DNA from: a virus
Length of the DNA: 64,000 bases
Reading direction: 5' to 3' (one strand)
Virus record (IMG/VR): IMGVR_UViG_3300009128_000003
Span: 51,051-115,050 of that record
The position numbers were made by a program, and so were the translations under genes. Shown one piece after another: positions 13,689 through 31,964 of this stretch. The notes beneath the pieces are model-generated. The model was not told the DNA's origin. It worked only from the letters and a program-made list of their open reading frames with translations, and searched no databases. Every line of letters begins with the position of its first letter. The stretch's first letter is position 1.

Positions 13689-13690
13689 AG

Positions 13691-13759
13691 TTAGGATCCT
13701 TTGCAGCAACGCCTAACGGGCTGCAGCATCCATTTATTTGTCCAAGTATTTGTGTTCAT
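13691..13759 (-). CDS. Putative 22-aa peptide MNTNTWTNKWMLQPVRRCCKGS
   Basis: Hand-found; GGAG SD 6 nt before the ATG; fills the gap and stops 2 nt before the protease start. Confidence 0.45.
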   Translation of the reverse strand: MNTNTWTNKWMLQPVRRCCKGS

Positions 13760-18379: not shown

Positions 18380-18387
18380 TTATCGCC

Positions 18388-19971
18388 TCACTTAATAATC
18401 CATTTATACTGATCGTATAATTCTTTTGCTTCACCCATTTTATCAAAAATATTATCTTTTTTGTAGCCTTGTTGTCCGTTAATTTGAGTGTTCATAGAAG
18501 TCTTCGAAGTAACAATGGCATTCACAAAAGCTTTTTGATAGTTTAGGTCTCGTGCGTTTGATTGCAATGCTGTGTCCCTCACCCAGCAAGCAATCGCTAG
18601 CGCCATGATGAGATCATCATGATATCCTTTCATTGCCTGTGGTTTACCGTTCTTCCAAATAAAAGTTTTCATCTCATTAATTGTGCGAGATGAATATATC
18701 TTAATTAGTTTGTTTCTGATAAACTCCTCTAATTTCGCAACGATGAGCGGGCGCGTCTTCATTGAGGTTGTGAACCCGGCAACGGCAGAGTTTCTAACTT
18801 CTGCTTGATGTTGCTCTATATACTCATGTGTAGACTTAATAGAGTAGTACAAATTTGGATAACCGTGTTCAACGAGTTTATCGAGAACCGTGTAACCGAT
18901 GTTATTGTTCTCTACTACAAGCATCGCATTTCCAAATTCTCTCCCTACTTGATTCAAGAAGTTTGCATACATATCGGGCGTTGGCTTCCCTTGATACTCG
19001 CCCACGATTTCCAGCGTCTCTAATTTAATCATGTGTAATGTTGAATAGTCAGCGCCATCGCCTCGCGAAACATCTGCCACCGCAAGATAGTTACATGTGG
19101 GATCGAATTCTTCCCAAATCCAGAAATTGCGATCAAAGCCGGTTCTGTGCTTTGGCTCTTTAACATTTTCTAATAGCCACTTCATACAGTCAGGGTCTAT
19201 GACAGTCTCGCCAGAAGTATTGAAATTGCACTCAAGCTCTTGTGCAATCTGGCGTTTTGACATGTTCTTGGTTTCTTTCTTATACCAAGCTTCATCACGC
19301 TCGGGGTGAACGTCCCACTGGAGTGTTGTAAGGTTAAAGTTATTGCTGCCGCCTTCAGCATCCATACATGTTTTATGGAACCAGTTACCGACCCCGTTGG
19401 GCGTTGAAAGTGCTATGCATCGCCCACCAGTTGATAGTGTAGGATACAGACCGGTCCACAGTTCTTCAAGTCCTTCAATGTGTGCAGCCTCATCAAGAAC
19501 CAGCAAAGACAGTGCCTCAGAACGACCGGCATCACCAGAGGTAGACGCTGCTTTGATAGATGACCCATTAGAAAGCTCAAAGGAAGTCCGGTTATCCACG
19601 TCAATTGTGGCGATCTTAAGCCAATCTGGCAAGTTGCGCATAACGCCCTTGACCTTCTTTACTAAGTTGCCCGCTGTTGCAAATTTGGTCGCCATAACAA
19701 GAATTGATTTGTCACGGTGAAACAACATCAACCAAACAATATAGCCAGCAGTGATTGTTGAAATCCCTAACTGGCGCGCCTTTAAAATAACATTAAAGCG
19801 ATAATCATTAAAATCTTTAAGAAGGTCGTCTTGGAAATCATAAGTATCAAATAAAATAAGCCCATACATGGGATGGGAAATTCTTGCGTAAGTCTTTAAA
19901 AAATAAGCGGGTTCCTTCCCGCATTTAAGTATTTCTTTAACTTGTTGTTTTTTGTCTAATTGGAACGTCAT
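18388..19971 (-). CDS. gp17: Terminase large subunit, T4 gp17-like
   Basis: Walker A KARQLGIST, Walker B LVLDEAAH, STPNG coupling motif, nuclease residues ADVSRG.G.D and HDDL. Confidence 0.95.
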   Translation of the reverse strand: MTFQLDKKQQVKEILKCGKEPAYFLKTYARISHPMYGLILFDTYDFQDDLLKDFNDYRFNVILKARQLGISTITAGYIVWLMLFHRDKSILVMATKFATAGNLVKKVKGVMRNLPDWLKIATIDVDNRTSFELSNGSSIKAASTSGDAGRSEALSLLVLDEAAHIEGLEELWTGLYPTLSTGGRCIALSTPNGVGNWFHKTCMDAEGGSNNFNLTTLQWDVHPERDEAWYKKETKNMSKRQIAQELECNFNTSGETVIDPDCMKWLLENVKEPKHRTGFDRNFWIWEEFDPTCNYLAVADVSRGDGADYSTLHMIKLETLEIVGEYQGKPTPDMYANFLNQVGREFGNAMLVVENNNIGYTVLDKLVEHGYPNLYYSIKSTHEYIEQHQAEVRNSAVAGFTTSMKTRPLIVAKLEEFIRNKLIKIYSSRTINEMKTFIWKNGKPQAMKGYHDDLIMALAIACWVRDTALQSNARDLNYQKAFVNAIVTSKTSMNTQINGQQGYKKDNIFDKMGEAKELYDQYKWIIK

Positions 19972-20225
19972 ACATCTTTCAATGCTGCTATAACTTCTTC
20001 GCGATTTGCAAGATCCCCTTCTCCGTCCAGAACAATCATTTCTTCCATTCCATCTACATGCATCATGTCGACAAGCTCAGCATCGGACATATCTTCGATT
20101 CCGTGGGGATCGAGGACATCATATGTCTCGTCTTCACCGCCCATATCATGATAATGACCCTCGCGCAAAACACTTGAGATCTCTTCTTTGATGATCTGCT
20201 TAAGGTATAATTTGGAGAATTTCAT
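19968..20225 (-). CDS. Small acidic protein with K-type leader
   Basis: MKFSKLYLKQIIKEEISSVLREG. Confidence 0.7.
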   Translation of the reverse strand: MKFSKLYLKQIIKEEISSVLREGHYHDMGGEDETYDVLDPHGIEDMSDAELVDMMHVDGMEEMIVLDGEGDLANREEVIAALKDV

Positions 20226-20228
20226 TGT

Positions 20229-20780
20229 CTATTCTTTCTTTCTTTTATCGTTGTCGGGGCGCTTGCCGCCTTCGCCATTCCAGCCACCAAGATCCAAAAA
20301 CTTTTTCCAGCTAGCCTCTACGGGATTGGTGGAGCCGCTGTTGTCGACGTTCATTTGCTCGGATAGACCACCAACGCGAAAGTGGAGCTTAGCCACAACC
20401 CATGAACGAACACGGGAAGAGTTCTCAACGCGCACATCAGCTTCGCCCTCTTTGGTCAGCTTGACTGATTCGCCAGTGATTCTCTTATACTCTTTCTTGA
20501 GCCATCCAGAAATATCAACAAGTCTTTGCTCAATCTCTTCTTCAAATCCGCCGGCATAAACCTCTCTGAGTTGAATATCGGACTGATATGTGAGACACAT
20601 CATGTCTCCGTAAAACTTCACGTTGAAGCCGTCCATGACCCTCTGATCGATAAGGGCGTTGCCCTCTTCTCTGCGCAGGGCGCCTACGGTTACTGGCGAC
20701 TGATCTTCTCCAAGCGCACCGTCATATGCGTTTGCTGCGGCTTGTGATAAGCCTTGAACTATTTCGTAAACTGTTGCCAT
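20229..20780 (-). CDS. Hypothetical protein upstream of terminase
   Basis: 183-aa ORF with SD, abutting neighbours. Confidence 0.65.
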   Translation of the reverse strand: MATVYEIVQGLSQAAANAYDGALGEDQSPVTVGALRREEGNALIDQRVMDGFNVKFYGDMMCLTYQSDIQLREVYAGGFEEEIEQRLVDISGWLKKEYKRITGESVKLTKEGEADVRVENSSRVRSWVVAKLHFRVGGLSEQMNVDNSGSTNPVEASWKKFLDLGGWNGEGGKRPDNDKRKKE

Positions 20781-21085
20781 TATTGGGGTTCTCCTTGTGG
20801 TGCTGCGGCGGCAGCTCTTTGGTCTTTCTGAACAGCGGTCTTCACTTGTGTTAGTAGCGATGGATCGATGTCAAGCGTCTGCATCAAGCCTTTTAAAAAT
20901 TCTACTTGGGCGCTGCGGCTAACCTTCGATAGGCGCACACCCACCTGCTCGATAAACTTCTGCACTGCTTGGTTCTTGACGGTCGTCTTTGCAGAGCCGC
21001 CGAGGTCCGAGACGGCAGTTCCGATGTCGGACTCAGCAATTGCTTCTCTAATAATTTGTTTAAGTTGTGATTTATTGATTCTCAT
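20780..21085 (-). CDS. Small protein with K-type leader
   Basis: MRINKSQLKQIIREAIAES. Confidence 0.7.
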   Translation of the reverse strand: MRINKSQLKQIIREAIAESDIGTAVSDLGGSAKTTVKNQAVQKFIEQVGVRLSKVSRSAQVEFLKGLMQTLDIDPSLLTQVKTAVQKDQRAAAAAPQGEPQ

Positions 21086-21458
21086 TTGGTCTCCAGCCTT
21101 TTTTCCATCTTTCTTCTCTATCTTCTACATATTCAATGTAACAATTATTGCAACAATCAAATTTTACAAGACAGACATCATCCATTGCACTCTTTGGAAA
21201 ATTTCCGCAGACAGGACAAGTTTTTAAAGATTCTCTATTAAGTAGTTTTTTTGTAACCTTTATCCCATTAACGTCGACTTTTTCTTCCCACTCTTTATTC
21301 TTAGAAGCGTGGCGATAGAGTTCTTTCATTTGCTGAAGATATTCTTTTTCTTTGGTCTCGTCCCAATCGGACCGAGGATTTTTAATGGCTTCTTCACCAT
21401 ATTTCGCAGCGATTGCGCGCTCAATGGCAGCTACCTCATTTAAATCTTTCTCACTCAT
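21072..21458 (-). CDS. Hypothetical zinc-finger protein
   Basis: CPVC...CCNNC; start moved to MSEKD. Confidence 0.65.
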   Translation of the reverse strand: MSEKDLNEVAAIERAIAAKYGEEAIKNPRSDWDETKEKEYLQQMKELYRHASKNKEWEEKVDVNGIKVTKKLLNRESLKTCPVCGNFPKSAMDDVCLVKFDCCNNCYIEYVEDREERWKKGWRPNENQ

Positions 21459-21882
21459 TAAACACCTTATATGCACCGTAGCTTAGTGCTATTCCAGATG
21501 CTACCCCAATTGTCACCCAAAGTGCAGGATTTTTTTTACTTTGTTTTTTAAGAGCATTTGCTAGCGCACCACTCTCGCGTTCTAGCGAATCAATTCGTAA
21601 AACATATTCTTGCAAAAGGGCTTCGTGGCGAATCTGTAAGTTTTGTAATTGTAGATCATAGTCTGCTGCTTGTATATCCAGTTGATATTTCATCCTTATC
21701 TCGCAATCGTTATTTAAGGCAAACCGATCCGCAAGGATGTGAGCGGTTGCTTTTGGGTCGAACAGGACACCCTCGTATGGCGCGCATTGATTTTTCCCCA
21801 AAAAGGTAAACCTTCCGTTGTCGGCGCCGAGTGCCGGATTACTCAGCAGTGCGCTCAAAGCCATAAGTATTAACAATCTCAT
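21451..21882 (-). CDS. Envelope coiled-coil protein, possible lysis accessory
   Basis: N-terminal signal peptide, coiled coil, C-terminal transmembrane helix. Confidence 0.5.
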   Translation of the reverse strand: MRLLILMALSALLSNPALGADNGRFTFLGKNQCAPYEGVLFDPKATAHILADRFALNNDCEIRMKYQLDIQAADYDLQLQNLQIRHEALLQEYVLRIDSLERESGALANALKKQSKKNPALWVTIGVASGIALSYGAYKVFNE

Positions 21883-22225
21883 TGGCTAAATCCTCCGGGT
21901 TCGATGAATAGCTTTTCTCTAAACGATCTCTTTTCTGTTTTTTTAATCTTTCGACTTCTTCTTGAGATTCTAAATAGCCTCTTTCGATTTCTTCAAGAGT
22001 TGTACGGTAGCTCCTCAATGCCGCGTCTCGCTTCTTAAGTTCTTCCTCGTGAATCTTTTGTAAACCCTCTACTTGTTCTTGGAGGCTTTGTTGCGAAATC
22101 TCATACGCTTTATTAAGCGCACGATAATCAAGCTGTGTCTTAATTACAACTGCAAGGAGGGAGCCAACGACCAGCAGTTCTCGCCAGTACTTTAAACCAA
22201 ATTTAATTACTGCCGACCAATTCAC
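21839..22225 (-). CDS. Membrane-anchored coiled-coil protein, i-spanin-like topology
   Basis: N-terminal hydrophobic helix followed by a long coiled coil; directly after the holin-like gene. Confidence 0.5.
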   Translation of the reverse strand: MNWSAVIKFGLKYWRELLVVGSLLAVVIKTQLDYRALNKAYEISQQSLQEQVEGLQKIHEEELKKRDAALRSYRTTLEEIERGYLESQEEVERLKKQKRDRLEKSYSSNPEDLANEIVNTYGFERTAE

Positions 22226-22419
22226 GCGACACCCTTAAGTTTAGCGATACCATCGATGACAGTTTGACCCCCAATGTAAATTGCTGAAATAATTACCCAG
22301 TCGCCCGACTGTAAGTCTGAAAATGCGAGGAGTCCTGTTGCGGTTAGCCATACAAGAAACTTCCGAGAAATCATTTTCTCGACTAATCTGTCTAGTTTGC
22401 CTTGTACATATTCCATCAT
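22222..22419 (-). CDS. Putative holin
   Basis: 65 aa, SRKF motif then two transmembrane helices. Confidence 0.6.
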   Translation of the reverse strand: MMEYVQGKLDRLVEKMISRKFLVWLTATGLLAFSDLQSGDWVIISAIYIGGQTVIDGIAKLKGVA

Positions 22420-22462
22420 CTTGTCTCCAATTATTAGCTTAAACTAAGCCTTCCTCTTCCGG

Positions 22463-23320
22463 TCATGCGTCTTCTTCCACTTTGGATGTACACATCTCTT
22501 CTGCCTCTGCTGCGGATAAGCTGTCTGCTCTTTCATCGGCGGGCTTGTCTTTTTGTGCGCAAGCCCAGCGGCGTTGCTTCTCGGAAGACACCTCTTCTAA
22601 GCCGTAATCTTGTTCAATATTTTCGCTAGCTGCGTCCATGAGTTGTGCCACCATATCGGCTAGTTGTTGTAATTCCTCTGGGTCTCCGGTGTCTAAGGCA
22701 GCTATTAATTTCATCAACTCTGTTCTTGTTGGTTCTGAGCGCTGGGCGATCCCTGCGCGAGAGAGAGTGCGAGCTACTGGAGCCATTCTGCCCGTACCTA
22801 GCGCCTCTGCGATCTCTTGTTCGATGATCTCGGCTAATTCCGCCGGCGGTTGAATCTTCTTCTTGCGGGCGGCTCTGCCAAACGCTGCCTGTCCATACCC
22901 AAGAGAGAGAGGATCTTCGCCGGTAACAGAAGCGGCTAAGTAATCAACACTAACATCTAAGTTATCAATCTTGTCTGCTAATTTATTGATCGCGCTTAAA
23001 AGGGCGGAATCGGTACTCATTTCTTCTTTGATTACTTTTATCAAGCTCTCTTCGAAGCCGATGCGCTCTGGTGCTCTATTGGATACTTCTTCAGGTTCCC
23101 TATCAAAGCCAATTTGTTGGGTCGCTTCCGGCTCTTCACTTGTTTCGGGTGGCGGACTGCCTCCCTCCATCTCCTTGAAGACAGTGGTGAAAACAACACC
23201 CACCAACTCCGGATCCATGCCGTCGACGAGACTGCTGATTCCGCCGATTAAATTCTCAATCGGAAGCGAGTCGATATTCTCTCGTATAATTTCTTTGAGT
23301 TGTGATTTTGTGATTTTCAT
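22463..23320 (-). CDS. Modular acidic protein with K-type leader
   Basis: Start moved to MKITKSQLKEIIRENI; internal LIKVIKEE and LAEIIEQE repeats; terminal SSEKQRRWACAQ module. Confidence 0.7.
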   Translation of the reverse strand: MKITKSQLKEIIRENIDSLPIENLIGGISSLVDGMDPELVGVVFTTVFKEMEGGSPPPETSEEPEATQQIGFDREPEEVSNRAPERIGFEESLIKVIKEEMSTDSALLSAINKLADKIDNLDVSVDYLAASVTGEDPLSLGYGQAAFGRAARKKKIQPPAELAEIIEQEIAEALGTGRMAPVARTLSRAGIAQRSEPTRTELMKLIAALDTGDPEELQQLADMVAQLMDAASENIEQDYGLEEVSSEKQRRWACAQKDKPADERADSLSAAEAEEMCTSKVEEDA

Positions 23321-23324
23321 GTTG

Positions 23325-23648
23325 TTAACCCATACCTTGCTTTTCAAATTTTGCAATCCAACGAAGGGCGTGACGTAGCTTATCTGATGGTTTGTTGCCG
23401 GGGAGGTCCGAATCCAGCAAGAAACTATGCAATTCGTAATAGGCATCGTAAGAAGCTTCTTGTTCTTCATCGGAGAGTGGTTCAATATCAATGGAGCCGC
23501 CAGTAAATCTTTCTTCTTCGGGCGGTGTGTGGACCGGGCGTTCCCATGCAGGAAGGCGCGCCTCCTCAATCTCTTCTTTAATAATATCAGTCTTCTCGTC
23601 CATAAAGTAACGAGGATCAATGAACTTCTTGTTTTTTCTAAATGCCAT
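23325..23648 (-). CDS. Small protein with IDPRYF-type leader
   Basis: MAFRKNKKFIDPRYFMDEKTDIIKEE; motif shared with 31452..31964. Confidence 0.7.
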   Translation of the reverse strand: MAFRKNKKFIDPRYFMDEKTDIIKEEIEEARLPAWERPVHTPPEEERFTGGSIDIEPLSDEEQEASYDAYYELHSFLLDSDLPGNKPSDKLRHALRWIAKFEKQGMG

Positions 23649-23670
23649 TATATTATTCCTTTTATATTTA

Positions 23671-24135
23671 TTATCGGCTTGCTAAATCTTGTTCAGCACT
23701 ATCCATTTCATCCTTGTGGCGCTCAAGCCAACGCTCAGCTTCTTCATCAGAAAGATCATGAGTTAAACTCTTTAGCGCTTCCTTAGCACTTAGTCCTGTT
23801 TTCATCATCTTTTTAACGACGTGAGAGGCTGAATGTGGTTCAGCTGCTTCATTCATTTCTTGTCGGCTTGCTAACTCTTTGTACATCTCTTCTGTGTCGT
23901 TATACATTGACAATTTGCCGTCTTGGTGCTTTACTATAATAGAAGGCTTTCCATCGCTAGCAATCTCAACGAAGGCTTCGACATTAAACTTGTCAGCCAA
24001 GTCTTGTACCTCTTCGTCCCTAATTTCTTCGGGGCTCATGTAATCTTCGCCAGTATCAATATCGGCAACAGCACGACCGGGTTCGTATGCTGCTTCGTTT
24101 GTGTACTTTCGCCAATTTTCAAATAGTTTGTTCAT
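23671..24135 (-). CDS. Acidic protein with W-type leader
   Basis: Start moved to MNKLFENWRKYTNE (ATGA overlap with the tubulin stop). Confidence 0.7.
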   Translation of the reverse strand: MNKLFENWRKYTNEAAYEPGRAVADIDTGEDYMSPEEIRDEEVQDLADKFNVEAFVEIASDGKPSIIVKHQDGKLSMYNDTEEMYKELASRQEMNEAAEPHSASHVVKKMMKTGLSAKEALKSLTHDLSDEEAERWLERHKDEMDSAEQDLASR

Positions 24136-25280
24136 GTTGCTAATCCATTCATACTTAGTATCGCAATCAATCCGGGCACATTCTTGCGCACGTAAACGCC
24201 AGAGAAAAGTGTCTCGCACCGACCGCCGACATAAGCGATTGCAGACTCAATGTTTTTACTGACCTTTGGGTCAGCCACCATCTCTTCCGAGACCACCAAC
24301 ACTAACGAACCGGCGCCTGCCTTCCCCTTGGGGGGCGGACACGCAGAACGATTCATACAGTTATGAAGGATCACCGATCCAAGCTTTGCTGTATTTGGAT
24401 CTTTTATCATTGTTGAGCCCATAAAGGCTCTGCCATTATTGCTCAAGCAAGTTTCCAAATCTTTAGAATCGAAAGATTGGATCGGTGAATCCTCGGTGGA
24501 GAGTTTTAAAACTTGAGCAAGTGACTTAGCAAATGTTGTGTTAGCGACAGGATACATGCCAAGCATGCCGATTCTGCCGCGGAGTAATCGTGTGGCACGT
24601 TCGTTGTCGAGAACGATGTGCGGATGGCGGGCAACGTCATTCACGAGCGTAAGCGCGTTGCGAGCGATAGTCGGGTTCAGTGCCTCTTGCGCGGTTGGCC
24701 AAGAAACAATATAGACCACTTTTCCAGAAGCCTGAACTGATTGCATATATCTTTCGAAGACTGGCTGCAGCGCGGTTACCGAACTGCCGGTTCCGCCGCC
24801 TCCACCAGCCATAACGAAAAGCCAATCGACTTTTCCAAGCTTAATACGAAGTGCATCTTCAACGATGGCGCCATTTTGGGAAAGAATCTCTTTGCCGTAA
24901 ACGACGTTCTTTCCGATGCCGTCGCTATCGGGGATAAGAACGACGTGATCTTCTTCGACGTTCTTCGGAATGTCTTTCCCTGTGGAGTTTACCATCAGTG
25001 TTTTGTTGAATCCAAGTTCAATGAAGGCGTTCGCCATTTTGTTGCCTCCGCCGCCAACGCCAACAAAGCCCACATTAATCGAAGAAGGGGCAGTGTTTTC
25101 TGGGAGGAGATCTTCATCAGAATATTCCATCTGGAGACCGAAGTCCTCAACCATGCCGAAATCCTCTGCTGCGACTTCTTCGTGATAGTGGTCTTTCTCC
25201 TGATTAAAGGAGGGTGGTGGCTCTGCGGGAGGCAGAAAATCAAATTCGTTTTTGTCATCTTTATTTTCGTTATCAGACAT
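24132..25280 (-). CDS. Tubulin/FtsZ-family GTPase (PhuZ/TubZ-like)
   Basis: VGVGGGGNK, DGIGKN, signature loop GGGGGTGS, LDN, and T7-like FDSKD; ~65-aa acidic N-terminal extension. Confidence 0.88.
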   Translation of the reverse strand: MSDNENKDDKNEFDFLPPAEPPPSFNQEKDHYHEEVAAEDFGMVEDFGLQMEYSDEDLLPENTAPSSINVGFVGVGGGGNKMANAFIELGFNKTLMVNSTGKDIPKNVEEDHVVLIPDSDGIGKNVVYGKEILSQNGAIVEDALRIKLGKVDWLFVMAGGGGGTGSSVTALQPVFERYMQSVQASGKVVYIVSWPTAQEALNPTIARNALTLVNDVARHPHIVLDNERATRLLRGRIGMLGMYPVANTTFAKSLAQVLKLSTEDSPIQSFDSKDLETCLSNNGRAFMGSTMIKDPNTAKLGSVILHNCMNRSACPPPKGKAGAGSLVLVVSEEMVADPKVSKNIESAIAYVGGRCETLFSGVYVRKNVPGLIAILSMNGLAT

Positions 25281-25295
25281 TGTTTATTCCTTATT

Positions 25296-26321
25296 TTACT
25301 GGTTTTCGTCTTCGGGATTGGGACCCTTTTGCTGGCGACCAAGTGCGTTCCCTACCGTAACCAAAAGAGGGATGACTGCATCGGCTGGCGCCTTAACAAT
25401 ATGAACGCCGGTATGCTGAAGTGCACCACCGGTACCGATAAGGGCGCCTGACCAACGATGGTGACCGTCGAGAATCTTTCCATCACTAGTGACAAAGGCT
25501 CCGCCCATATCTTTGAGTTGTTTTGCTGGATTGTTGTATGCAAATAATAGTGACTTAGCTGCCAAAATATTACTTTGCGTTGGAATCATTTTTGAGTTTG
25601 TGGCGCCGGCGTCTTTTTCAACGGCTACAGCGTCACCCGGCGCGCCGTCGAGCATCCCTTTGGTTAAGAACGCCAATGCGGCGCCCTTAATATTTTTAAG
25701 ATTGATTTGTTCTTTTTCTCCAACAGCGGGGGCGCCGGGCATTGGACCTTTTCCAAATCGTGGAAACTTGTCTTCACTGACGTTTTGTTGGGGGGTCTGT
25801 TGGGTTGCTTGCTGTACTTGTTCTACAGATGGGATCTTCCCTGCTTCGTACATCTGTTTAATCGGCTCGGGTAGTGCCTCCCACCACTCTTTAAAGCTTT
25901 CGATTTGGTTCGCAAATTTCGAACTTAGATCAACTCCCAAGGCGCCATCTTGATCGCTTAGTGCATCTACTACTGCATCGGCGTCTCCGCCCTCCAGAGC
26001 AGGCATATTAAATTTAGCTGTTTTTGCTGTAGAGATCAGTTTTTGAACTTGTTGAACTCTCGCTATGAAGGCTTCTTGTCCAATCTGCCCAAACCTTTGT
26101 TTAACTTGTTCTGGGGTGCCCAAGACGCCGCTTGCCCAGCCAGTGGCATTTTTCATCGCATTATAGAGCGGACTCTCCTGTCCGGACACAAGCTGCCTCC
26201 AGAGTTCATCAGCCTTGACGGCTCCAATATTAGTATCGGGAGTTATTTGGGCAAATCCTTGTTGTGCGGCTTCTTCTTGTTCATTAACAAATTTACGCCA
26301 GTTTTCCATTAAAAGTTTCAC
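25296..26321 (-). CDS. ParB/Sulfiredoxin-like domain protein with W-type leader
   Basis: C-terminal IPTQ...ILDGHHRW; N-terminal MKLLMENWRKFVNE; GTG start. Confidence 0.7.
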   Translation of the reverse strand: MKLLMENWRKFVNEQEEAAQQGFAQITPDTNIGAVKADELWRQLVSGQESPLYNAMKNATGWASGVLGTPEQVKQRFGQIGQEAFIARVQQVQKLISTAKTAKFNMPALEGGDADAVVDALSDQDGALGVDLSSKFANQIESFKEWWEALPEPIKQMYEAGKIPSVEQVQQATQQTPQQNVSEDKFPRFGKGPMPGAPAVGEKEQINLKNIKGAALAFLTKGMLDGAPGDAVAVEKDAGATNSKMIPTQSNILAAKSLLFAYNNPAKQLKDMGGAFVTSDGKILDGHHRWSGALIGTGGALQHTGVHIVKAPADAVIPLLVTVGNALGRQQKGPNPEDENQ

Positions 26322-26848
26322 TGTTTTTTATCTCCTTGAATCTCTTGTAGCACTTCTCTAATAATGTCCTTAATCTTCTCTATGGATTCGCCGTAAGCAA
26401 GGTTAGATGAACCAACAGCGCTGGATGCGCGATGGGCAGGGGATTTATCACGTCGATACGACGACGACGATGACGACGATCTTCCAGAGCCGCGCTTCTT
26501 CCTGGCTTGCTCAATATCCCATTGAGCCTGTCGATGTTGTTCGGAGTCAGCTACATGCTTGGTTCTCCATTTTAAGAAGTCCTGGTAAGCCTCATATGAA
26601 CTCGTATCGTCGAAGTTCTGTCCTCGGGCATCTTCCCACTTGAATTGACCGGCGGCGCCTCCACTACGAAATTCTTCATAGTCTTCGCGCTCATCTTCTG
26701 GGACATTTGCCATTGGATCGGCTGCTGGGGCTGCTTTCTTGCCGCCAAGACCGAGGGCGCCCTTGATAGAGTCCACAAAACCCTCATCGACGGTGTTTTC
26801 TATTTCTTCTCTGATTACGCTTCGAAGCTGCGATTTGGTAATTTTCAT
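26318..26848 (-). CDS. Protein with K-type leader
   Basis: MKITKSQLRSVIREEI; C-terminal IKDIIREVLQE. Confidence 0.7.
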   Translation of the reverse strand: MKITKSQLRSVIREEIENTVDEGFVDSIKGALGLGGKKAAPAADPMANVPEDEREDYEEFRSGGAAGQFKWEDARGQNFDDTSSYEAYQDFLKWRTKHVADSEQHRQAQWDIEQARKKRGSGRSSSSSSSYRRDKSPAHRASSAVGSSNLAYGESIEKIKDIIREVLQEIQGDKKQ

Positions 26849-26860
26849 GCTGTTGACTCC

Positions 26861-29800
26861 TTATTGGTTTACTCTTGCATATCCATTTTTCTTTTCAATT
26901 ACAATTTGCATGTCAACACAGTCTTTGAGCGAATCAAGGTGCGAGATCAACAAAACGTTCTTAAAATACACTTTAATTAGTTCTAAGATCCTAATAAAAC
27001 CTTCCATATTTTCTTCATCTAATGCTGTGCCGGGCTCGTCGAGGATGAATAAGTCGCTTTTGGGCAGTGAAGAGACACTCAGAAGAGCCAAACGAATTGC
27101 CATCGCCGCCATGGTTTTCTCTGCGCCAGACGCCATTTCAATAGGGCGCTCGTCGTATAGAGGGTGCTTGATAAAGATGTCAAACTTATTACCAGAACTC
27201 TCAAAGAAAATTTCAAAATCTACAATATTTGCCAACACCTTCGCTATCTCTTGATTGATAACAGGAATCTTCTTTTTAATCACATCGTATGCAATTCCGT
27301 TTGGGTGCATGCACTGCATAAACAGATCGTAGGCTGCATATGAGTTCTGTAGTTCTTTGTATTCAGTTTGTTGCTCTCGCAAGTTTTCAATCTTTTGTTC
27401 GCAAGAACCAACGAGTTTAACGATATCTAAAGTCTCTTGTTCGCAAGTCGTTATCTCATTCTGCTTACTGTTCATGTCTTTTTGGTGCTTATCTTTTTCC
27501 TTTATAAGTTTCTCAAGATTCTCAATTGCTTCTTTATTTTCTTCGTATTCCTTAATTTGATTAGTAATATCTTTCAAAGATAATTCTATCTTAGATTTTG
27601 TAGCCTTGTTGCGCTCTCGCTTAAGCTTCAACTCAGAAATCTCTTTTTCAAAATTTAAAGACTTTATTTGTAAAGCGTTGTGTTCTTCAATCTCCAACTC
27701 GATTTCTTCGGGATTTAATGCGCTGCGGGCTTCTATGGACTTATCGCGCTCGTTAGCTGCAATATCCCTTGTGGCAACTGAGACGTGTGCATCTCTAATA
27801 AACTTGCACGTTGGGAACGAATCACCGCACGGGATTCCCTCTAGCAGCTTCTGTTTCTTAACGATACTCTCTAGTTCTTGATTTAACGAGGCAATCGTTT
27901 CATCTAATTTCTCAATCGACAACTTATTCTCAAGGTTCTTCTGGTGATCTATCGCGCCGAGTAGCTTCTCGGTTGCCGCGATTTCCTCGCTCTTGAGAGA
28001 TATGAACTGCGATTGTTCTTTGATTGTTTCGCCCAAAGCAACAATAGAATTAACTTTCTTTTTGTGCTCTTTGCGCAAGTTAGTAATGTCCACCACTTCC
28101 GAGGGAGTCGCTTTGATTTGTTCTTCCAATAAGCGCACAACATCCGTCAATGTATTAAGCTTAATACGCAAGGATTCACAGAGGCTCTTGTTCTTCTCTG
28201 ATTTGTTCTGATACTTATTCAACTCCTTCGTGGCGGCGGTGATGTCTGCCCCATAGTCTCGGTCTTCGTGCTTCTTAATCAAGACTTTGGCTTCTACCGA
28301 GTCTTCCTTGGACATCCTAAACTTCTTTTCAAAAATCTCCAGGTCCAAGAACTTAGCAATGATCTCTTTACGTCGAGTAGAGCCCTCATCAATAAATGCT
28401 AACGCACCATGCTGCGAGGCTAGCGAAGATACCATGAAATCATCGATAGAACCAAAATGCTTTCTGATAATTGCATCTGTCTGATTTCGCGTTGTTCCGT
28501 TCAGAGATGTTGTTTCTTCGGTGATGCGATCATATACTTCAAAATTCAAATCGGTTTTGGCTTCTAGGGTTTCCTCGCCCTTAAGCCTCTTAACGTACTT
28601 CTCTGATTTCCTTTCAACCGTATAGACCTTATTGTTTGACTCGATAGTGAGCTTGCCTGCGCATGAATCTCTGTTCTGATTAATGACGTTTAAGTTTTTG
28701 CGTTCGTTCTTGGACGTCGTATTAAACAAAGTATATAATGCAGCATCAATCACAGAACTCTTTCCGGAAAAGTTCTTTCCAAAGATGCCGATGATACCAC
28801 CCATATTTTCAAAATTAATTGAATTGTCTGTTCCATAATTAAACAGATTGTCAAACTCAAAGGTCTTAAGTTTCCAGTTTACATTGCGCGAGACTTCCTC
28901 TGTCTCCTCAATAATTTTGTTGTAAGCCCGATTGAGTTCATAAACTTTTTCGAGCGTCTCAGAGGGCACCTGATAGTCCTTAAGGTACTCATCGATAAGT
29001 TCTTCCTGAATCTTTGGATCTCGCAAGTTCTCGGTCTTGAGTCCGTCTGTAATATCTTCAACATTTCCGCGTTCACCGGTGGCTCTGTTCAAAAACGAGA
29101 TGCTCTCCGGTTTGAATCGGTGTTTGGCGATATCCATTGCGCGCTTCATCACATTGAGCGGAAGATTGTTGTTGCTCACCAAGCGCAGACGAGCGCCGGT
29201 TGGCACATCAATCTTGCGTGGCATGCGCCCCTTCATCGTTAAAGGAATTGTAAAGAATGGCTTTGGATTCTTAAGCACAATGGGCTCGATTTCCCAATCA
29301 TCCTTTGACTGGATATCCCAGATGAGAATCCCCTTATCATTTGTTTCGCCATGATTCTGCTGTACAGTTGAGCCGGCATACCAAACGCGACCTACTTCAT
29401 CTAAATATTGACGACGGTGAATATCGCCGAGCATGGCGAAATCAAAGTCTTCAAAGATAGTTAGAGTATCTTCGCCATTTCTCATTGTCCAGTTCATGTC
29501 AGTCTTACAGTTGCTGATTGAGCCGTGATACAGGGCGATGTTGATTTTATCAGTATCGCTTGGCTTTGTCCAATTATCTCGATCAAAGACTGAAAGCACA
29601 TTCAAACAGAACTTATCGTCTATGTGGGTTTCGCCAGATTCTTTGAGCAGATGCAGAGCTGGCAAGTTTAACGCATCTACAATCGGCGTCAATGCGTCTT
29701 GGCGACTACTATTCTTTAGATTGCCATCGTGGTTGCCCAATATAATATATGTGGGTGCAATCTCCGCTAAACTGCGGAAGAAATCAGAACACATTTCCAC

Positions 29801-29986
29801 AAACTCTGGTGAGATCTGTGTCTTTGTGTGTGCGATATCTCCGCAATGAACGATGTAATCGACTTCCTGCTCTCGCAGTGTCTGGTATAATTGTTCGAAT
29901 ACAATTCTATATTCGTAGTGATACTTCAAATTTTTGATATGAGTGTCACTGATGTGTGCAAACTTCAAACTTCCCTCCGAGCACAA
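26861..29986 (-). CDS. Mre11/SbcD-Rad50/SbcC fusion recombination nuclease (gp47+gp46-like)
   Basis: Phosphoesterase motifs DTH, GD, GNHD, HG, GDIH; Walker A GKNFSGKS; hook-like CGDSFPTC; signature ASGAE; Walker B ILDEP; ISH. Confidence 0.92.
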   Translation of the reverse strand: MCSEGSLKFAHISDTHIKNLKYHYEYRIVFEQLYQTLREQEVDYIVHCGDIAHTKTQISPEFVEMCSDFFRSLAEIAPTYIILGNHDGNLKNSSRQDALTPIVDALNLPALHLLKESGETHIDDKFCLNVLSVFDRDNWTKPSDTDKINIALYHGSISNCKTDMNWTMRNGEDTLTIFEDFDFAMLGDIHRRQYLDEVGRVWYAGSTVQQNHGETNDKGILIWDIQSKDDWEIEPIVLKNPKPFFTIPLTMKGRMPRKIDVPTGARLRLVSNNNLPLNVMKRAMDIAKHRFKPESISFLNRATGERGNVEDITDGLKTENLRDPKIQEELIDEYLKDYQVPSETLEKVYELNRAYNKIIEETEEVSRNVNWKLKTFEFDNLFNYGTDNSINFENMGGIIGIFGKNFSGKSSVIDAALYTLFNTTSKNERKNLNVINQNRDSCAGKLTIESNNKVYTVERKSEKYVKRLKGEETLEAKTDLNFEVYDRITEETTSLNGTTRNQTDAIIRKHFGSIDDFMVSSLASQHGALAFIDEGSTRRKEIIAKFLDLEIFEKKFRMSKEDSVEAKVLIKKHEDRDYGADITAATKELNKYQNKSEKNKSLCESLRIKLNTLTDVVRLLEEQIKATPSEVVDITNLRKEHKKKVNSIVALGETIKEQSQFISLKSEEIAATEKLLGAIDHQKNLENKLSIEKLDETIASLNQELESIVKKQKLLEGIPCGDSFPTCKFIRDAHVSVATRDIAANERDKSIEARSALNPEEIELEIEEHNALQIKSLNFEKEISELKLKRERNKATKSKIELSLKDITNQIKEYEENKEAIENLEKLIKEKDKHQKDMNSKQNEITTCEQETLDIVKLVGSCEQKIENLREQQTEYKELQNSYAAYDLFMQCMHPNGIAYDVIKKKIPVINQEIAKVLANIVDFEIFFESSGNKFDIFIKHPLYDERPIEMASGAEKTMAAMAIRLALLSVSSLPKSDLFILDEPGTALDEENMEGFIRILELIKVYFKNVLLISHLDSLKDCVDMQIVIEKKNGYARVNQ

Positions 29987-30004
29987 ATGTGCCTCTACTA
30001 TACA

Positions 30005-30033
30005 AGTATATCTTGTTCAGTAGAGGCTGTCAA
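30005..30033 (-). promoter_or_regulatory. Sigma70-type promoter for the Mre11-Rad50 fusion
   Basis: TTGACA-17 nt-TATACT on the minus strand in an intergenic gap. Confidence 0.85.
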
Positions 30034-30049
30034 GTATTTTTTTGTGCCA

Positions 30050-30388
30050 TTACTCAGAGGGCATATCGCCCATAAAATAATCACTTAACAGTTCCATGCT
30101 GTATATTACCTGATCTAACTCTTGAGAAAGCTCTGACGCTACTGGATCGCCTTGTTGTTGAAGGTAAAGCTTTGCGTCGTTAATTCTCGCCAGCATATGA
30201 TTGTGGTTAAGTTTGCGTTGTGATCGTTGTGTAAGAGGAGGCTCGCCAGTATCGTCGCGAGAAGGCTCGTCAGACTGCTCATAATCATCGTGAGTGATCA
30301 TGGAGTCATCGAAAGGCTTTTTCACGACGCCTTCATTGGCGACCTCTTCCGCGATAATCTTACGCAATTGTTCTTTTGTAATCTTCAT
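30050..30388 (-). CDS. Small protein with K-type leader
   Basis: MKITKEQLRKIIAEEVANEG. Confidence 0.7.
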   Translation of the reverse strand: MKITKEQLRKIIAEEVANEGVVKKPFDDSMITHDDYEQSDEPSRDDTGEPPLTQRSQRKLNHNHMLARINDAKLYLQQQGDPVASELSQELDQVIYSMELLSDYFMGDMPSE

Positions 30389-31299
30389 TTCTTTTTGTCC
30401 TTTGCCATCTTGCGGAATGTTTTGGCTAGATTATATCTCTTCGTTCCCGGCTTGCAAGTAGGTCCGCCAAACTTATCGCCGGTGCAGACACCTTCTGTGC
30501 CGCTCTTTTCAATATCTTTTTCTGCATCTTGGATCCAATCATCCTTTTCTTCTGAGGGGGCTTCTTGCATCTTTTTCTCCTCCAGTGCGGCTTCGACTTC
30601 CTCTTTAACGATCTTCAGCATGTGTTCTCTATATGTTGATTTAAGTCCGCGCATATTACTAAGGAATCCCGATTTGATCTCTTTTTTAAGCCTATCTCTA
30701 ATCCCGGGTGGTACCGGGCGATCTAAACCATATTCAATCGCGAATCGCAATTTTAATGCTTGTTCTCTGAGCACTTTTCGGGGTTCGTCGTAGTTGTCGA
30801 AGCCATCTATATACATGTCAACTGGCATCCTCTCGTACGGTCCTCCGCGAGTGGCGCCGGATACAAGCTCATCTCCTAGTGAGCCAACCTTCTTAATTAT
30901 ACGCTCGACTGCATCGTTTGTATGCCTTAAGACTTCAGAATGCCCAGATCCTCGACCTTCAGTCACTGGCTCTGATTCGGCACCTTTTACATGCTTGGCG
31001 TATTCTCTAGTAATATCAGCCAACTCCTTAAGGGCACCTTGTTCTCGGATGGGTAACCCATAAACAGTTGTGTTCTGAAAGTGTTCTGACTTCTTCTGCA
31101 CCATAAGGTTTGACAACTCAAACATTTGTTGTAGGGTTCGGGCTATTTCATTTAGCTCGTCTCTAGCGTCTCTGTGTTTGACTTTCTGAGTGTCGTCGTC
31201 TCTGCGCGCATCCATGCCGGCAAGCCGGGCTTCAAGATCCTCTATCGAACTTAGCTCTTCTTTGATGATTTGTTTAAGCTGCGTTTTTGTGATCTTCAT
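30385..31299 (-). CDS. Modular protein with K-type leader
   Basis: Start moved to MKITKTQLKQIIKEEL; internal MLKIVKEEV; terminal DWIQDA...LAKTFRKM module. Confidence 0.7.
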   Translation of the reverse strand: MKITKTQLKQIIKEELSSIEDLEARLAGMDARRDDDTQKVKHRDARDELNEIARTLQQMFELSNLMVQKKSEHFQNTTVYGLPIREQGALKELADITREYAKHVKGAESEPVTEGRGSGHSEVLRHTNDAVERIIKKVGSLGDELVSGATRGGPYERMPVDMYIDGFDNYDEPRKVLREQALKLRFAIEYGLDRPVPPGIRDRLKKEIKSGFLSNMRGLKSTYREHMLKIVKEEVEAALEEKKMQEAPSEEKDDWIQDAEKDIEKSGTEGVCTGDKFGGPTCKPGTKRYNLAKTFRKMAKDKKK

Positions 31300-31436
31300 C
31301 TTCCTTTCCACCACTTTGTCTTTTTCTTCTCCGGAGAACATTTGCTTCCCGAGGGGCACCATTTGTATATGTTGGACAAATAATTACTAAGCTCTTCTTC
31401 GATAATATCTTTAAGTCGGGATTTGGTGATTTTCAC
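31296..31436 (-). CDS. 46-aa peptide with K-type leader (below ORF-track cutoff)
   Basis: Hand translation from GTG: MKITKSRLKDIIEEELSNYLSNIYKWCPSGSKCSPEKKKTKWWKGR; AAGGA SD; ATGA overlap with next gene. Confidence 0.75.
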   Translation of the reverse strand: MKITKSRLKDIIEEELSNYLSNIYKWCPSGSKCSPEKKKTKWWKGR

Positions 31437-31451
31437 TTGTTTATTCCTTAG

Positions 31452-31964
31452 CTACTGTTCGACGATCTGGCTAACTAATATTCCGATTGCCATTAACGCC
31501 ACGCCTCCGGTTAATCCCAGCGCAAATACTGCCGGCGTGGCGACTGCTGCAGCGCCGATCATCATGATTCCGCCGGCGCCGAGTCCGGTAGCTAGGGCTG
31601 CATCCGATAATGGATTACCCCCAAGCACCCCGTCGCCTTCTTGCATTGCGTCTGCCTCCGCTGCACCTTCCTGCGCAGCGGCTTGGACTTCGGGATCCTT
31701 CGCTGCCTGTTGTACAGCAGCCATGACTGCCGGACTTTGGGCGAGGACTTGAGCAAGCTCTTGTGCTTGTGTCATGTCAGGTTCGCGAGTTTGTAATCGT
31801 GGGGTTCGACGTGCGGAGGGCGACGGTGCGCCGGCGCCTACGCCAGCAATCTCCTTCATGCGCGTGACTTCTTTTTCTTCCTTGATTACTTCTGCCTTCT
31901 CATCCATAAAGTATCGTGGGTCGATTCTCCTGACGTTTTTTCTTGGTTTTCCCCATCTGGACAT
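31452..31964 (-). CDS. Protein with IDPRYF-type leader and C-terminal hydrophobic hairpin
   Basis: RRIDPRYFMDEKAEVIKEE, RMKEIAGV, Gly/Ala-rich hydrophobic C-terminus. Confidence 0.7.
   Translation of the reverse strand: MSRWGKPRKNVRRIDPRYFMDEKAEVIKEEKEVTRMKEIAGVGAGAPSPSARRTPRLQTREPDMTQAQELAQVLAQSPAVMAAVQQAAKDPEVQAAAQEGAAEADAMQEGDGVLGGNPLSDAALATGLGAGGIMMIGAAAVATPAVFALGLTGGVALMAIGILVSQIVEQ

Follow-up and report, generated by a model that had tools for sequence, protein, structure and literature searches.

A swappable N-terminal peptide on varied proteins of a marine T4-like phage: a candidate capsid-targeting tag

The window analysed here is a stretch of 64,000 nucleotides from the 115-kb virus record of an uncultured, marine, T4-like phage. 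Its head module and a set of small genes bearing conserved N-terminal peptides are listed in Table 1. The N-terminal propeptide of the major capsid protein contains the sites LLEG, LLEN and LLRE61|S, at a position corresponding to the cut in T4 gp23. The scaffold-like protein is characterized by 15 [IL]-x-E sites, a C-terminus reading ..RMKRLAGIK and a late-type motif upstream of its gene; the [IL]-x-E sites of propeptide and scaffold lie at T4-like places. The 828-aa protein has DAWKGFLAE, a tag-B-like stretch, close to its N-terminus and, as in the scaffold, a related C-terminus (..RWKTLAGIK). The tagged cluster borders the upstream side of the head module (portal and large terminase, 16352..19971), where its genes are interspersed with those for replication and partition (primase, SbcCD, tubulin).

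Table 1. Genes and motifs of the window discussed in the text.
Feature	Position	Strand	Remarks
Major capsid protein, gp23 family	439..2244	-	
Scaffold-like acidic protein, 381 aa	2276..3421	-	Candidate docking partner
Conserved small head-module protein X	10188..10613	-	Tag-like N-terminus MKKKDLKELMKPMVKECIHELLIEEG (MKKKDLKELMKPMVKECIHELLIEE)
828-aa protein after protease	10610..13096	-	
Prohead serine protease, family S77 (T4 gp21 type)	13083..13709	-	Proposed cutter; PF03420, phrog_207
T4-type portal	16352..18379	-	
Large terminase	18388..19971	-	
Tag-A gene, 85 aa (MKFSKLYLKQIIKEE..)	19968..20225	-	Directly upstream of large terminase gene
Tag-A gene, 101 aa (MRINKSQLKQIIREA..)	20780..21085	-	
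Tag-A gene, 285 aa (MKITKSQLKEIIREN..)	22463..23320	-	Two modules
Tag-C gene, 107 aa (MAFRKNKKFIDPRYFMDEKTDIIKEE..)	23325..23648	-	
Tag-B gene, 154 aa, internal ATG (MNKLFENWRKYTNE..)	23671..24135	-	
Tag-B gene, 341 aa (VKLLMENWRKFVNE..)	25296..26321	-	V12-x-E14 in register with tag A
Tag-A gene, 176 aa (MKITKSQLRSVIREE..)	26318..26848	-	SbcCD gene 13 nt upstream
Tag-A gene, 112 aa (MKITKEQLRKIIAEE..)	30050..30388	-	
Tag-A gene, 304 aa (MKITKTQLKQIIKEE..)	30385..31299	-	ATGA overlap with both flanking genes
Tag-A gene, 46 aa, GTG start (VKITKSRLKDIIEEE..)	31296..31436	-	
Tag-C gene, 170 aa (..RRIDPRYFMDEKAEVIKEE..)	31452..31964	-	First gene of operon, followed by three tag-A genes
Late-type (structural-gene) promoter-like motif ACTATTTA	32002..32009	-	45 nt upstream of 170-aa tag-C gene

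A preliminary description of this DNA held that seven genes share a common leader (here tag A) and are unrelated afterwards, and this is borne out. The leader, an N-terminal peptide of ~15 residues with the consensus MKITKxQL(K/R)xIIxE (or, in fuller form, MKITKxQL(K/R)xII(K/R)E-E), opens exactly seven ORFs of the 115-kb record, all between 19968 and 31436 of the window; six start with ATG (20225, 21085, 23320, 26848, 30388 and 31299, minus strand) and one with GTG (31436). In a search of the complete record translated in all six frames, an HMM of 18 columns built from these leaders gives them 32-37 bits (E 3.5e-10 to 9e-9), and as the eighth-ranked match reaches only 9 bits, the count of seven is exact and far above chance. 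Every start is preceded by a Shine-Dalgarno-like sequence or overlaps the gene before it by ATGA (7/7), and I-x-E occupies leader positions 12-14 in all seven. The bodies of the proteins have no mutual blastp match at E<1e-4, and no Pfam or PHROG family was found for any of the seven. Codons vary between the copies, and every one of the six Leu and three Ile codons is used across 301 distinct DNA copies of the leader; the constraint therefore acts on the peptide and not on the DNA, as had been proposed. The same description called the leader amphipathic, for which there is no support: its helical hydrophobic moment (0.27-0.35) is equalled by 20-35% of shuffles. A weaker variant reported at 10613 is present, but it falls below the HMM threshold and belongs to the conserved head-module protein X, not to an eighth cargo gene.

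The tagged proteins are modular. In the 85-aa protein the leader takes up codons 1-15 (20181-20225) and the cargo is very acidic, with a net charge of -18. In the 285-aa protein a degenerate internal tag, ESLIKVIKEEMSTD, precedes a second module that in other phages is found by itself, with tag A at its N-terminus. The AlphaFold model of the 112-aa protein (start 30388) shows the leader as a free helix (5-17) on a disordered tether (19-44, pLDDT below 50), apart from the cargo fold, a separate and confident helical hairpin (54-105). Two further tags end in the same way as tag A: tag B, MKLxMENWRKF-[LV]-x-E (ENWRKF-L-x-E), which shares its register, and tag C, DPRYFMDEK..[IL]-x-E or ..KKFIDPRYFMDEK-xx-[IL]-x-E. 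P0005, which is orthologous to the 30388 cargo at 76% identity, bears tag C and not tag A, a second natural A/C swap was found (L118/L117), and the C-terminal 60 residues of the 154-aa tag-B protein occur behind a tag-A leader in a relative (G011). There are at least three interchangeable tags, B and C replacing A on orthologous cargo.

A conservation profile was derived from 101 HMM-found copies in five complete genomes. Entropy is lowest at L8 (0.08 bits), E14 (0.16), I12 (0.28) and I11 (0.52); position 13 is free (1.8 bits), residues are conserved by class (e.g. K/R, I/V/L), and conservation collapses beyond E14/E15, with every position from 16 on above 3 bits. The conserved block closes with a hydrophobic-x-Glu site, which agrees with the consensus for T4 gp21 and with how the T4 capsid-targeting sequence (CTS) is laid out.

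The tag is widespread, being present on at least 315 ORFs at 113 IMG/VR loci, in 224 cargo clusters, and on 14,330 protein clusters of a library of 1.84 billion proteins. Complete genomes contain between 1 and 40 copies. Among 596 Gb of prokaryotic genomes only nine tag stretches were found, all in five MAGs, three of which also hold an S77 gene; the tag is virus-specific and essentially absent from bacterial genomes. Relatives whose tubulin and TerL are 88-92% and 79-88% identical keep the backbone genes and insertion slots, and none of the seven window cargos was found in those close relatives. Such complete turnover resembles the situation in T-even phages, whose sets of internal proteins are likewise variable (PMC3012670). 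The hundreds of unrelated cargos, the natural swaps, the full turnover and the predicted free helix strongly support the earlier notion of a portable tag on variable cargo. Cargos are 18-422 aa long (median 104), contain 0.4% Cys and mostly lack recognisable domains; some have a confident fold of their own or enzyme domains (HNH, DUF6321, and DUF5661 in the phage immuto). Most (74%) are net acidic, with a median charge of -5, while the internal proteins of T4 are, conversely, basic; the cargos also show no depletion of [IL]-x-E sites (z = -0.9). Both observations count against loading into the capsid.

Orthologues of protein X are encoded immediately downstream of the S77 gene in three genomes (G010, where the protein begins MAKITKRMLKGIVKEC.., G003 and G001), and the tag HMM matches all three (E 2e-4, 5e-4 and 7.5e-3). 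In T4 the CTS of IPII/IPIII, MKTYQEFIAEA, resembles the gp22 N-terminus, MLKEQLIAEA, a likeness that the tag-like N-terminus of X parallels. Promoter-like motifs give a mixed picture. All 15 copies of the sequence ACTAT[CT]TA are on the gene strand, with none on the opposite one; 10 of the 15 have an ORF start 15-60 nt downstream (background 5.5%), mostly of structural genes. One copy, 32002..32009, lies within the primase gene at its 3' end and heads an operon of the 170-aa tag-C gene and the tag-A genes of 46, 304 and 112 aa. In G001 the motif precedes the scaffold gene and also stands 127 nt ahead of the tag cluster. Over 308 upstream regions such late-like motifs are only about two-fold enriched, and four of the seven tag-A genes of the window lack a late motif of their own, being preceded by a sigma70-like promoter and replication genes (SbcCD at 30033). 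The gene at 30388 may have its own sigma70-like site.

The gp21-like protease noted earlier in the window is confirmed by matches to PF03420 (6.7e-35) and phrog_207 (2.8e-57). Of 28 virus records that bear the tag, 22 contain PF03420, among them all seven that are at least 90% complete. Of the six others, five also lack the portal and one ends directly after it, so no tag-bearing record has a head module but no S77 protease; in every testable case the tag is, as predicted, confined to phages with such a protease. The S77 phages T4, Syn9, P-SSM2, HTVC008M and Mel-JY01 lack the tag, and immuto has a single copy. Since other S77 phages do without the tag, the association may partly reflect shared ancestry.

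We hold with moderate confidence that the tag most likely works like the T4 CTS, loading varied proteins into the capsid. Docking on the prohead core and a cut at I-x-E would fit the conservation profile, the N-terminus of X and the one late-type promoter. A different view, which we consider unlikely, is that the tag is unrelated to the capsid and is an interaction motif sending early or middle accessory proteins to another hub (a phage or host protein, a chaperone, a protease, a membrane or DNA), the S77 link being one of lineage. The position of the window genes among primase, SbcCD and tubulin genes, behind sigma70-like promoters, agrees with this, as do the tagless S77 phages and the jumbo genomes, whose large tagged-gene arrays, some at record ends, lie 70-100 kb from the head module and resemble early-gene arrays. 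Forty capsid cargos per genome would, moreover, be without precedent: we know of no CTS repertoire that comes near this number, which counts against the capsid reading. Such a motif leaves unexplained why conservation stops exactly at an invariant hydrophobic-x-Glu shared by tags B and C, why X has a tag-like N-terminus and why one tagged operon has a structural-gene promoter motif ahead of it. Tubulin itself is ruled out as the hub, as G003 has 27 tags but no tubulin homologue.

It is somewhat less probable still that the tag does bring about co-assembly into the prohead core but that the tagged proteins are auxiliary core or filler parts. Like T4 gp67, gp68 and gp22, these would be cleaved into pieces during maturation and expelled, or would remain as small acidic peptides, and would not be delivered as effectors. 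Cargos are small, acidic and partly disordered, as is gp67 (80 aa, acidic, containing DLIKEEK); tag-like IIKEE occurs 14 times inside tagged proteins against 1.6 expected; and the undepleted [IL]-x-E sites and the multi-module ORFs point the same way. Conservation is the rule for core components, however, while these cargos are replaced completely from one close relative to another, fall into 224 clusters and include confidently folded or enzymatic proteins. The fused ORFs also bear on the proposal, to our minds very improbable, that the conserved 5' ends act at the DNA level, as borders of cassettes or as regulatory elements favouring recombinational shuffling or translation, in the manner of the mobile regulatory cassettes of T4-type phages, and encode a functionless peptide. 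Fused ORFs retain a translated ribosome-binding site (..KENK-M..), the slots between backbone genes into which tagged genes are inserted are the same in related phages, and metagenome contigs join exactly across some slots (weak evidence, flanks being short); yet start-less internal copies retain the peptide, synonymous variation is free, with six Leu codons at position 8 among the 301 DNA versions, and conservation follows amino-acid class. Least credible of all is a leader of another known kind. Tandem arrays with a conserved N-terminus and hypervariable remainder recall RiPP precursors, but the lengths and Cys content of the cargos do not, and no modifying enzymes lie nearby; the tag, charged throughout and without a hydrophobic core, is not a Sec or Tat signal.

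On the capsid-loading reading, docking, cleavage, packaging and injection are steps that we infer. The basic and hydrophobic first part of the leader (K2, I3, K5, L8, K/R9-10, I11) would form a short helix on a flexible tether and bind the very acidic prohead core, that is, the scaffold-like protein and/or X. Bound in this way, the tagged protein would be enclosed as the shell forms, and the S77 protease would cut after the invariant Glu of I12-x-E14, freeing the cargo inside the head. Tags B and C, with the same kind of ending, are interchangeable alternatives to A, and the cargos are small, mostly acidic proteins that form a rapidly changing set.

The closest known system is the CTS of T4 IPI, IPII, IPIII and Alt, which is removed by gp21 (Mullaney and Black 1996; PMC9026906, PMC3012670); its targeting residues are N-terminal and its processing uses residues 8 and 10 (PMC9026906). 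Both are short N-terminal peptides on unrelated proteins (10-19 aa in T4, ~15 here) with an (I/L)-x-E ending, in phages with an S77 protease, T4-type portal, major capsid protein and acidic scaffold; both resemble the N-terminus of a head-core protein, and in both the cargo set differs between related phages. The present tag has no sequence homology to the CTS (its HMM has no match in T4), exceeds it in length and is basic in its first half; it is found on 5-40 genes per genome against ~4, in at least three interchangeable forms, with multi-module fusions and mostly acidic instead of basic cargos. In the giant phages phiKZ, 201phi2-1 and SPN3US, inner-body and ejection proteins carry propeptides, and many head-internal proteins are cut by a gp21-related protease after x-x-Glu, as proposed here; the number of packaged species is likewise large, and the SPN3US paralogues gp53 and gp54 have conserved N-termini, the first 15 residues being identical (PMC5694885). 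Those propeptides differ in being mostly >100 aa and cut at (S/A/G)-x-E (PMC5694885), and they belong to paralogous families, not unrelated cargos, in phages where the rest of the head module is not T4-type. Encapsulin cargo-loading peptides and P1 DarA/DarB also let a terminal peptide or adaptor decide the content of an HK97-fold shell, anti-defence proteins being among the cargos (PMC9024508); encapsulin tags, however, are C-terminal and uncleaved, and P1 uses protein adaptors instead of a shared leader (PMC9024508). The PeSLs of T4-type phages similarly exchange accessory-gene cassettes at fixed backbone slots, but are DNA-level promoter and stem-loop elements, whereas here the element is a translated peptide with free synonymous sites (PMC2839356). 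We read the tag as the T4 capsid-targeting principle in a new form, in which the cleaved cargo would either stay in the head and be injected along with the DNA or leave it as scaffold fragments do.

Seven genes of the window open with near-identical peptides of about 15 residues, hereafter tag A (MKITKxQL(K/R)xIIxE), and all seven fall inside 11.5 kb. In a six-frame translation of the whole 115-kb record, of which the window spans positions 51051-115050, these genes score 32–37 bits against a profile of their own first 18 residues; as the best non-member match reaches 9 bits, the record contains exactly seven copies. The bodies behind the tag, termed cargos here, display no mutual blastp match and no Pfam or PHROG family, which bears out the preliminary description in its claim of a common leader on at least seven otherwise unrelated proteins. 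Every tag-A gene is either preceded by a Shine-Dalgarno-like sequence or overlaps the adjoining gene through an ATGA start/stop, and all window genes are on the minus strand.

The tagged genes are located directly upstream of a T4-type head module (major capsid protein, MCP; scaffold-like protein; prohead protease; portal; large terminase, TerL) and are interspersed with a tubulin/FtsZ homologue, an Mre11–SbcC fusion and a DnaG-type primase. The gp21-like protease reported earlier near 13083 is indeed encoded there and belongs to the S77 family. The nearest cultured phages are Flavobacterium phage vB_FspM_immuto, here called immuto, whose portal is 38% identical, and Microcystis phage Mel-JY01: the window phage is therefore a distant, uncultured relative of T4. 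Four sequencing runs, all from a single marine metagenome study, contain the window almost entirely (84–97% of sampled words), and it may have come from one of them; the same search gave no RNA run among the matches listed, a result that carries no information on expression. The SbcCD fusion is a single chain of 1041 aa, corresponding to T4 gp47 and gp46 joined. The phage also encodes an FKBP-type peptidyl-prolyl isomerase, and a 3734-aa ORF lies within the tail/baseplate part of the window. Inside the head module, a ribosomal protein S21 homologue adjoins a conserved small protein, designated protein X; the same neighbour is found in two other tag-bearing virus records (G001 and G003), and the counterpart in Mel-JY01 is annotated RpsU.

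Features of the window, in window coordinates
Feature	Position	Strand	Remarks
MCP	439-2244	-	PF07068, 3e-72
Acidic scaffold-like protein	2276-3421	-	C-terminus ..ERMKRLAGIK
S21 homologue, 81 aa	9935-10180	-	PF01165, 29.8 bits (cut-off 27)
Protein X	10188-10613	-	tag-like N-terminus
828-aa post-protease protein	10610-13096	-	tag-B-like sequence near N-terminus; C-terminus ..ERWKTLAGIK
S77 prohead protease	13083-13709	-	PF03420, 6.7e-35
Head-module protein	14073-15002	-	tag-B-like sequence near N-terminus
Portal	16352-18379	-	PF07230, 4e-79
TerL	18388-19971	-	
Tag-A gene starts	20225, 21085, 23320, 26848, 30388, 31299 (ATG), 31436 (GTG)	-	near-identical N-terminal peptides
Tag-B genes	25296-26321, 23671-24135	-	MKLxMENWRKF-[LV]-x-E; x-E in tag-A register
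Tag-C genes	23325-23648, 31452-31964	-	MAxRKNKKFIDPRYFMDEK then xx-[IL]-x-E; 13 copies in 11 loci
Tubulin/FtsZ-family GTPase	24132-25280	-	PF00091, 1.4e-08
SbcCD fusion	26861-29986	-	Mre11/SbcD-type phosphoesterase (PF00149) fused to SbcC/Rad50-type ATPase (phrog_77, 7e-54)
FKBP-type isomerase	33005-33559	-	PF00254, 6.4e-22
3734-aa ORF	48455-59659	-	
ACTAT[CT]TA	63406, 38161, 32009, 15031, 13866, 9935, 6332, 3461		candidate late promoter

The tag is real and widespread beyond the window. When IMG/VR was scanned with a degenerate DNA version of MKITKxQL[KR]x[IV]IxE, the matches listed comprised more than 117 stretches, often with 2–8 copies side by side, and at least 315 tagged ORFs (median 104 aa) in 113 loci, the tag always standing at the ORF start. 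From these matches, 298 cargos (residues 23 onward) fell into 224 blastp clusters, 182 of which are singletons, as anticipated by the expectation that a leader scan would return many matches on unrelated C-termini. Among 301 distinct DNA versions of the tag, position 8 is encoded by each of the six Leu codons, and each of the three Ile codons is used as well; selection thus acts on the peptide rather than on the codons, as had been argued, and a role as a DNA-level cassette border is effectively excluded. A tag profile built from 143 N-termini detected 14,330 clusters at E≤1e-3 among 1.84 billion representative proteins, and the ten top matches whose source was looked up all derive from metagenome collections, one being the Global Ocean Sampling data set. 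Complete genomes harbour 1, 5, 13, 18, 27, 31 or 40 copies, with large tandem arrays.

Prokaryotic genomes hardly contain the pattern: a set of 596 Gb gave only nine stretches, all of them on metagenome-assembled (MAG) contigs and one a 306-kb contig with 14 copies; no isolate genome in the set matched. An S77 gene is also present in three of the five tag-bearing MAGs. With two to three mismatches the DNA pattern had no match in immuto, Mel-JY01, Syn9, HTVC008M or P-SSM2; a profile search disclosed one truncated copy in immuto that the pattern had missed. A tblastn search of 50,697 cultured-phage records with the 25-aa leader and the 45-aa tag-C N-terminus returned nothing at E≤10, to which the low-complexity filter may contribute, and a full-text literature search for the leader strings found no paper with the motif. 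A word-indexed protein search with the leader region of the gene at 30388 gave only eight candidates, all orthologues, and is uninformative on distribution. The family phrog_7338, a weak match to one leader, reached only E 0.002–0.02 and was rejected as non-specific, five control bacteria having matched as well.

As the DNA pattern had fixed several positions, 101 copies were collected anew by HMM from five complete genomes. Entropy is lowest at L8 (0.08 bits), E14 (0.16), I12 (0.28) and I11 (0.52); position 13 is free at 1.8 bits, position 15 stands at 2.0 and all positions from 16 on exceed 3 bits. Residue 12 is Ile in 96 of the 101 copies and Val in the rest, and E14 is present in 99. The conserved block therefore ends in hydrophobic-x-Glu, the gp21 site; in jumbo phages the tag runs on as ..EEKAKLLxE, a second L-x-E. 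In an AlphaFold model of a 112-aa tagged protein, computed from a shallow seven-row alignment, the tag forms a helix (residues 5–17), followed by a linker (19–44) with pLDDT below 50 and a confident helical hairpin (54–105). Given the unrelated cargos and a modelled helix that stands apart from the body, the tag is not part of a folded domain. The helix had been described as amphipathic, but its hydrophobic moment is no higher than in shuffled sequences and it is only weakly so.

Other kinds of leader fit poorly. A RiPP precursor would have a short core rich in Cys, Ser or Thr next to a modifying enzyme, but the tagged proteins reach 422 aa (median 104 aa), have a Cys content of 0.4% and have neighbours devoid of such enzymes. 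In the consensus MKITKxQLKxIIKEE charged or polar residues recur every two to three positions and no hydrophobic h-region follows a basic n-region, as a Sec/Tat signal peptide would have; both of these leader types are effectively excluded. A long propeptide of the phiKZ type (>100 aa, cut at (S/A/G)-x-E) was also rejected: the conserved block here spans 15 aa, or 22 aa in jumbo genomes, and its P3 residue is I, L or V instead of S, A or G.

Two further leaders, tags B and C, occur in the same loci as tag A and in the window. The three are exchangeable in nature: the database protein P0005 is 76% identical to the 30388 cargo, yet bears tag C; a second A/C exchange distinguishes the IMG/VR loci L117 and L118; and the C-terminal part of the window's 154-aa tag-B protein stands behind tag A in the relative G011. 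The top database matches contain two to four tag-plus-cargo modules per ORF, some with internal tags that lack Met (P0014, P0011). These are fused neighbouring genes, since a translated ribosome-binding site (..KENK-M..) is often still visible, and a 285-aa protein of the window is an older fusion of this type.

Cargo sets are exchanged rapidly between close relatives. G011–G013 share 88–92% identity with the window in tubulin, 79–88% in TerL and 59–74% in primase, and retain the order primase, SbcCD, tubulin, five small genes, TerL; they lack all seven window cargos, and other tagged genes occupy the slots. Such differences between related phages are a trait of T4-type internal proteins. Contigs from the same metagenomes join across 23664->24136, exactly the 154-aa tag-B gene, and across 25250->26862, the SbcCD–tubulin slot; the joints are a weak hint, because their flanks are short (20–33 nt, 90% likeness). 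The single tagged protein of immuto, immuto35A_190 (L121:12556-13314), has a DUF5661 domain (PF18905, 9.6e-10).

The tag is associated with the S77 protease and resembles proteins of the head. S77 was found in 22 of 28 tag-bearing records, including all seven that are at least 90% complete. Of the six without it, five have no portal either and the sixth breaks off right behind its portal, so no tag-bearing record has a head module without S77; among these 28 records the earlier proposal that the tag is confined to phages with a gp21-like protease held. The link could nevertheless reflect lineage, as several S77 phages carry no tag. Just downstream of the S77 gene, with one ORF between, G010, G003 and G001 encode protein X (128–153 aa), with the N-termini MAKITKRMLKGIVKECLVEIL, MPKKVTRSLLKEIVKEC and MKKSELKNIIKEC, which the tag profile detects at E 2e-4, 7.5e-3 and 5e-4, respectively. 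The weaker leader variant previously noted at 10613 is present and, in an alignment of orthologues, proves to be the window's own protein X. In immuto a 73-aa head-module protein (MKKSQIVKAVQEVLEE) resembles the phage's single tagged gene (MKKSQLRQIIKEAL, E 3e-7). T4 offers a parallel: the capsid-targeting sequence (CTS) of IPII/IPIII, MKTYQEFIAEA, resembles the N-terminus of the scaffold gp22, MLKEQLIAEA. Protein X shows no similarity to T4 gp67 or gp68 by hhalign (probability about 0.1%), and an ESM Atlas search with it returned viral hypothetical proteins only.

Tag B, like tag A, has look-alikes in the head module, two of whose proteins carry MSEMHLIMNGWRGYLLQE and ..DAWKGFLAE, respectively. 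The propeptide of the MCP contains LLEG, LLEN and LLRE61|S at places matching those of T4 gp23, and 15 [IL]-x-E sites occur in the scaffold-like protein; both are consistent with a conserved protease specificity. T4 gp21 itself depends on a prohead context. The scaffold-like and 828-aa proteins share a C-terminal peptide, and the scaffolds of immuto, Mel-JY01, G001 and G010 end similarly (R[WM]xxLAGI/L..K): this end may be a shell-binding tail borrowed by the second protein.

The motif ACTAT[CT]TA, a candidate late promoter unlike T4's TATAAATA, has 15 copies in the whole record, all on the gene strand and none on the other. An ORF starts 15–60 nt downstream of 10 of the 15 copies (background 5.5%), and the genes behind it are mostly structural, the scaffold-like gene included. 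An operon of one tag-C gene (170 aa) and three tag-A genes (46, 304 and 112 aa) is headed by the copy at 32002-32009, which falls within the 3′ end of the primase gene; in G001 the motif precedes the scaffold gene by 41 nt and the tag cluster's first gene by 127 nt. Against late timing count strong sigma70-like promoters before primase (32956) and SbcCD (30033), the latter near-consensus (TTGACA-17-TATACT); the tagged gene at 26848 starts 13 nt past the SbcCD gene. A consensus scan of 18–34 kb for sigma70 promoters and terminators found no more matches than in shuffled sequence. In a k-mer test of the regions upstream of 308 tagged ORFs, the late-like motif appeared in only 18, about two-fold over expectation, and a second word, (C)GATACTAAGTA, in a subset of 8–13 of these regions (L004–L120), enriched about ten-fold; near-identical contigs, or a promoter used by another subgroup, may account for this second word. 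Some tagged genes are possibly expressed both early and late.

The layout of tag A mirrors that of the T4 CTS. Both are short N-terminal peptides on otherwise unrelated proteins, both end in the gp21 motif (I/L)-x-E, and the window genome, like T4, has an S77 protease, portal, MCP and scaffold. In the T4 CTS, targeting depends on residues 4 and 7 and processing on residues 8 and 10 (I-x-E) (PMC9026906); tag A likewise is a conserved block closing in I-x-E. The T4 sequences (MKTYQEFIAE / MKTFKEF..ITE) are not homologous to it and, since the tag profile has no match in T4 at E≤1, the relation is one of analogy, not descent. On balance we lean towards a CTS-like leader that would dock the tagged protein on the acidic prohead core and then be cut off by S77 after I12-x-E14.

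Several observations count against loading into the capsid. As capsid cargos, up to 40 tagged genes in one genome would be unprecedented, and in jumbo genomes the arrays lie 70–100 kb away from the head module. T4 internal proteins are small, basic and DNA-associated, whereas 74% of the 298 cargos are net acidic (median charge -5); [IL]-x-E is neither depleted nor enriched in them, and the lack of depletion is unfavourable. Pfam assigned to the 100 longest cargos only DUF6321, FliG_C and HNH, in one protein each, a functional blank that also weighs on this side. The tag might instead steer accessory proteins to some hub that has nothing to do with the capsid, a live rival that we nevertheless consider unlikely. 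Slightly less probable, but likewise a live rival, is a role of the cargos as auxiliary filler of the prohead core. Phage tubulin was rejected as the tag's target: no homologue of it exists in G003, which has 27 tags, or in G007 and G004. Tubulin homologues occur in 10 of 15 tag-bearing virus records (none in G003, G004, G006, G007 and G014), with 88–93% identity in close relatives and 52–56% in jumbo genomes of 240–290 kb: the protein is a conserved trait of some members of this T4-like clade, independent of the tag.

Should the capsid reading be wrong, it would still have to be explained why a single genome can carry one 15-residue motif on as many as 40 unrelated genes. Phage immuto, the only cultured carrier found, is through immuto35A_190 the most accessible test case and offers a clear experimental route. 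Packaged or injected phage proteins take effect ahead of all phage gene expression; those of T4 and P1 include anti-restriction factors. A broader scheme is possible, if doubtful: a large clade of uncultured phages, marine T4-like and jumbo, would employ no fewer than three interchangeable tags, removable by the protease, to load tens of proteins that are injected with the DNA, probably for host takeover or anti-defence. The products of as many as some 40 genes, about one tenth of a genome, could then be packaged, and the tag would mark a rapidly exchanged arsenal of more than 14,000 injected protein families, legible from sequence; scale and several interchangeable tags would set it apart from known CTS-type loading. 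If the tag is a capsid-loading signal, the packaged, possibly injected, proteins of a major uncultured ocean phage group could be listed from sequence, location and timing could be predicted for more than 14,000 protein families, and the tagged set would be rich ground for new anti-defence proteins. Short natural tags would become available for loading foreign proteins into capsids of non-coli phages, and CTS-type loading would be no T-even oddity but a scalable, multi-tag system.
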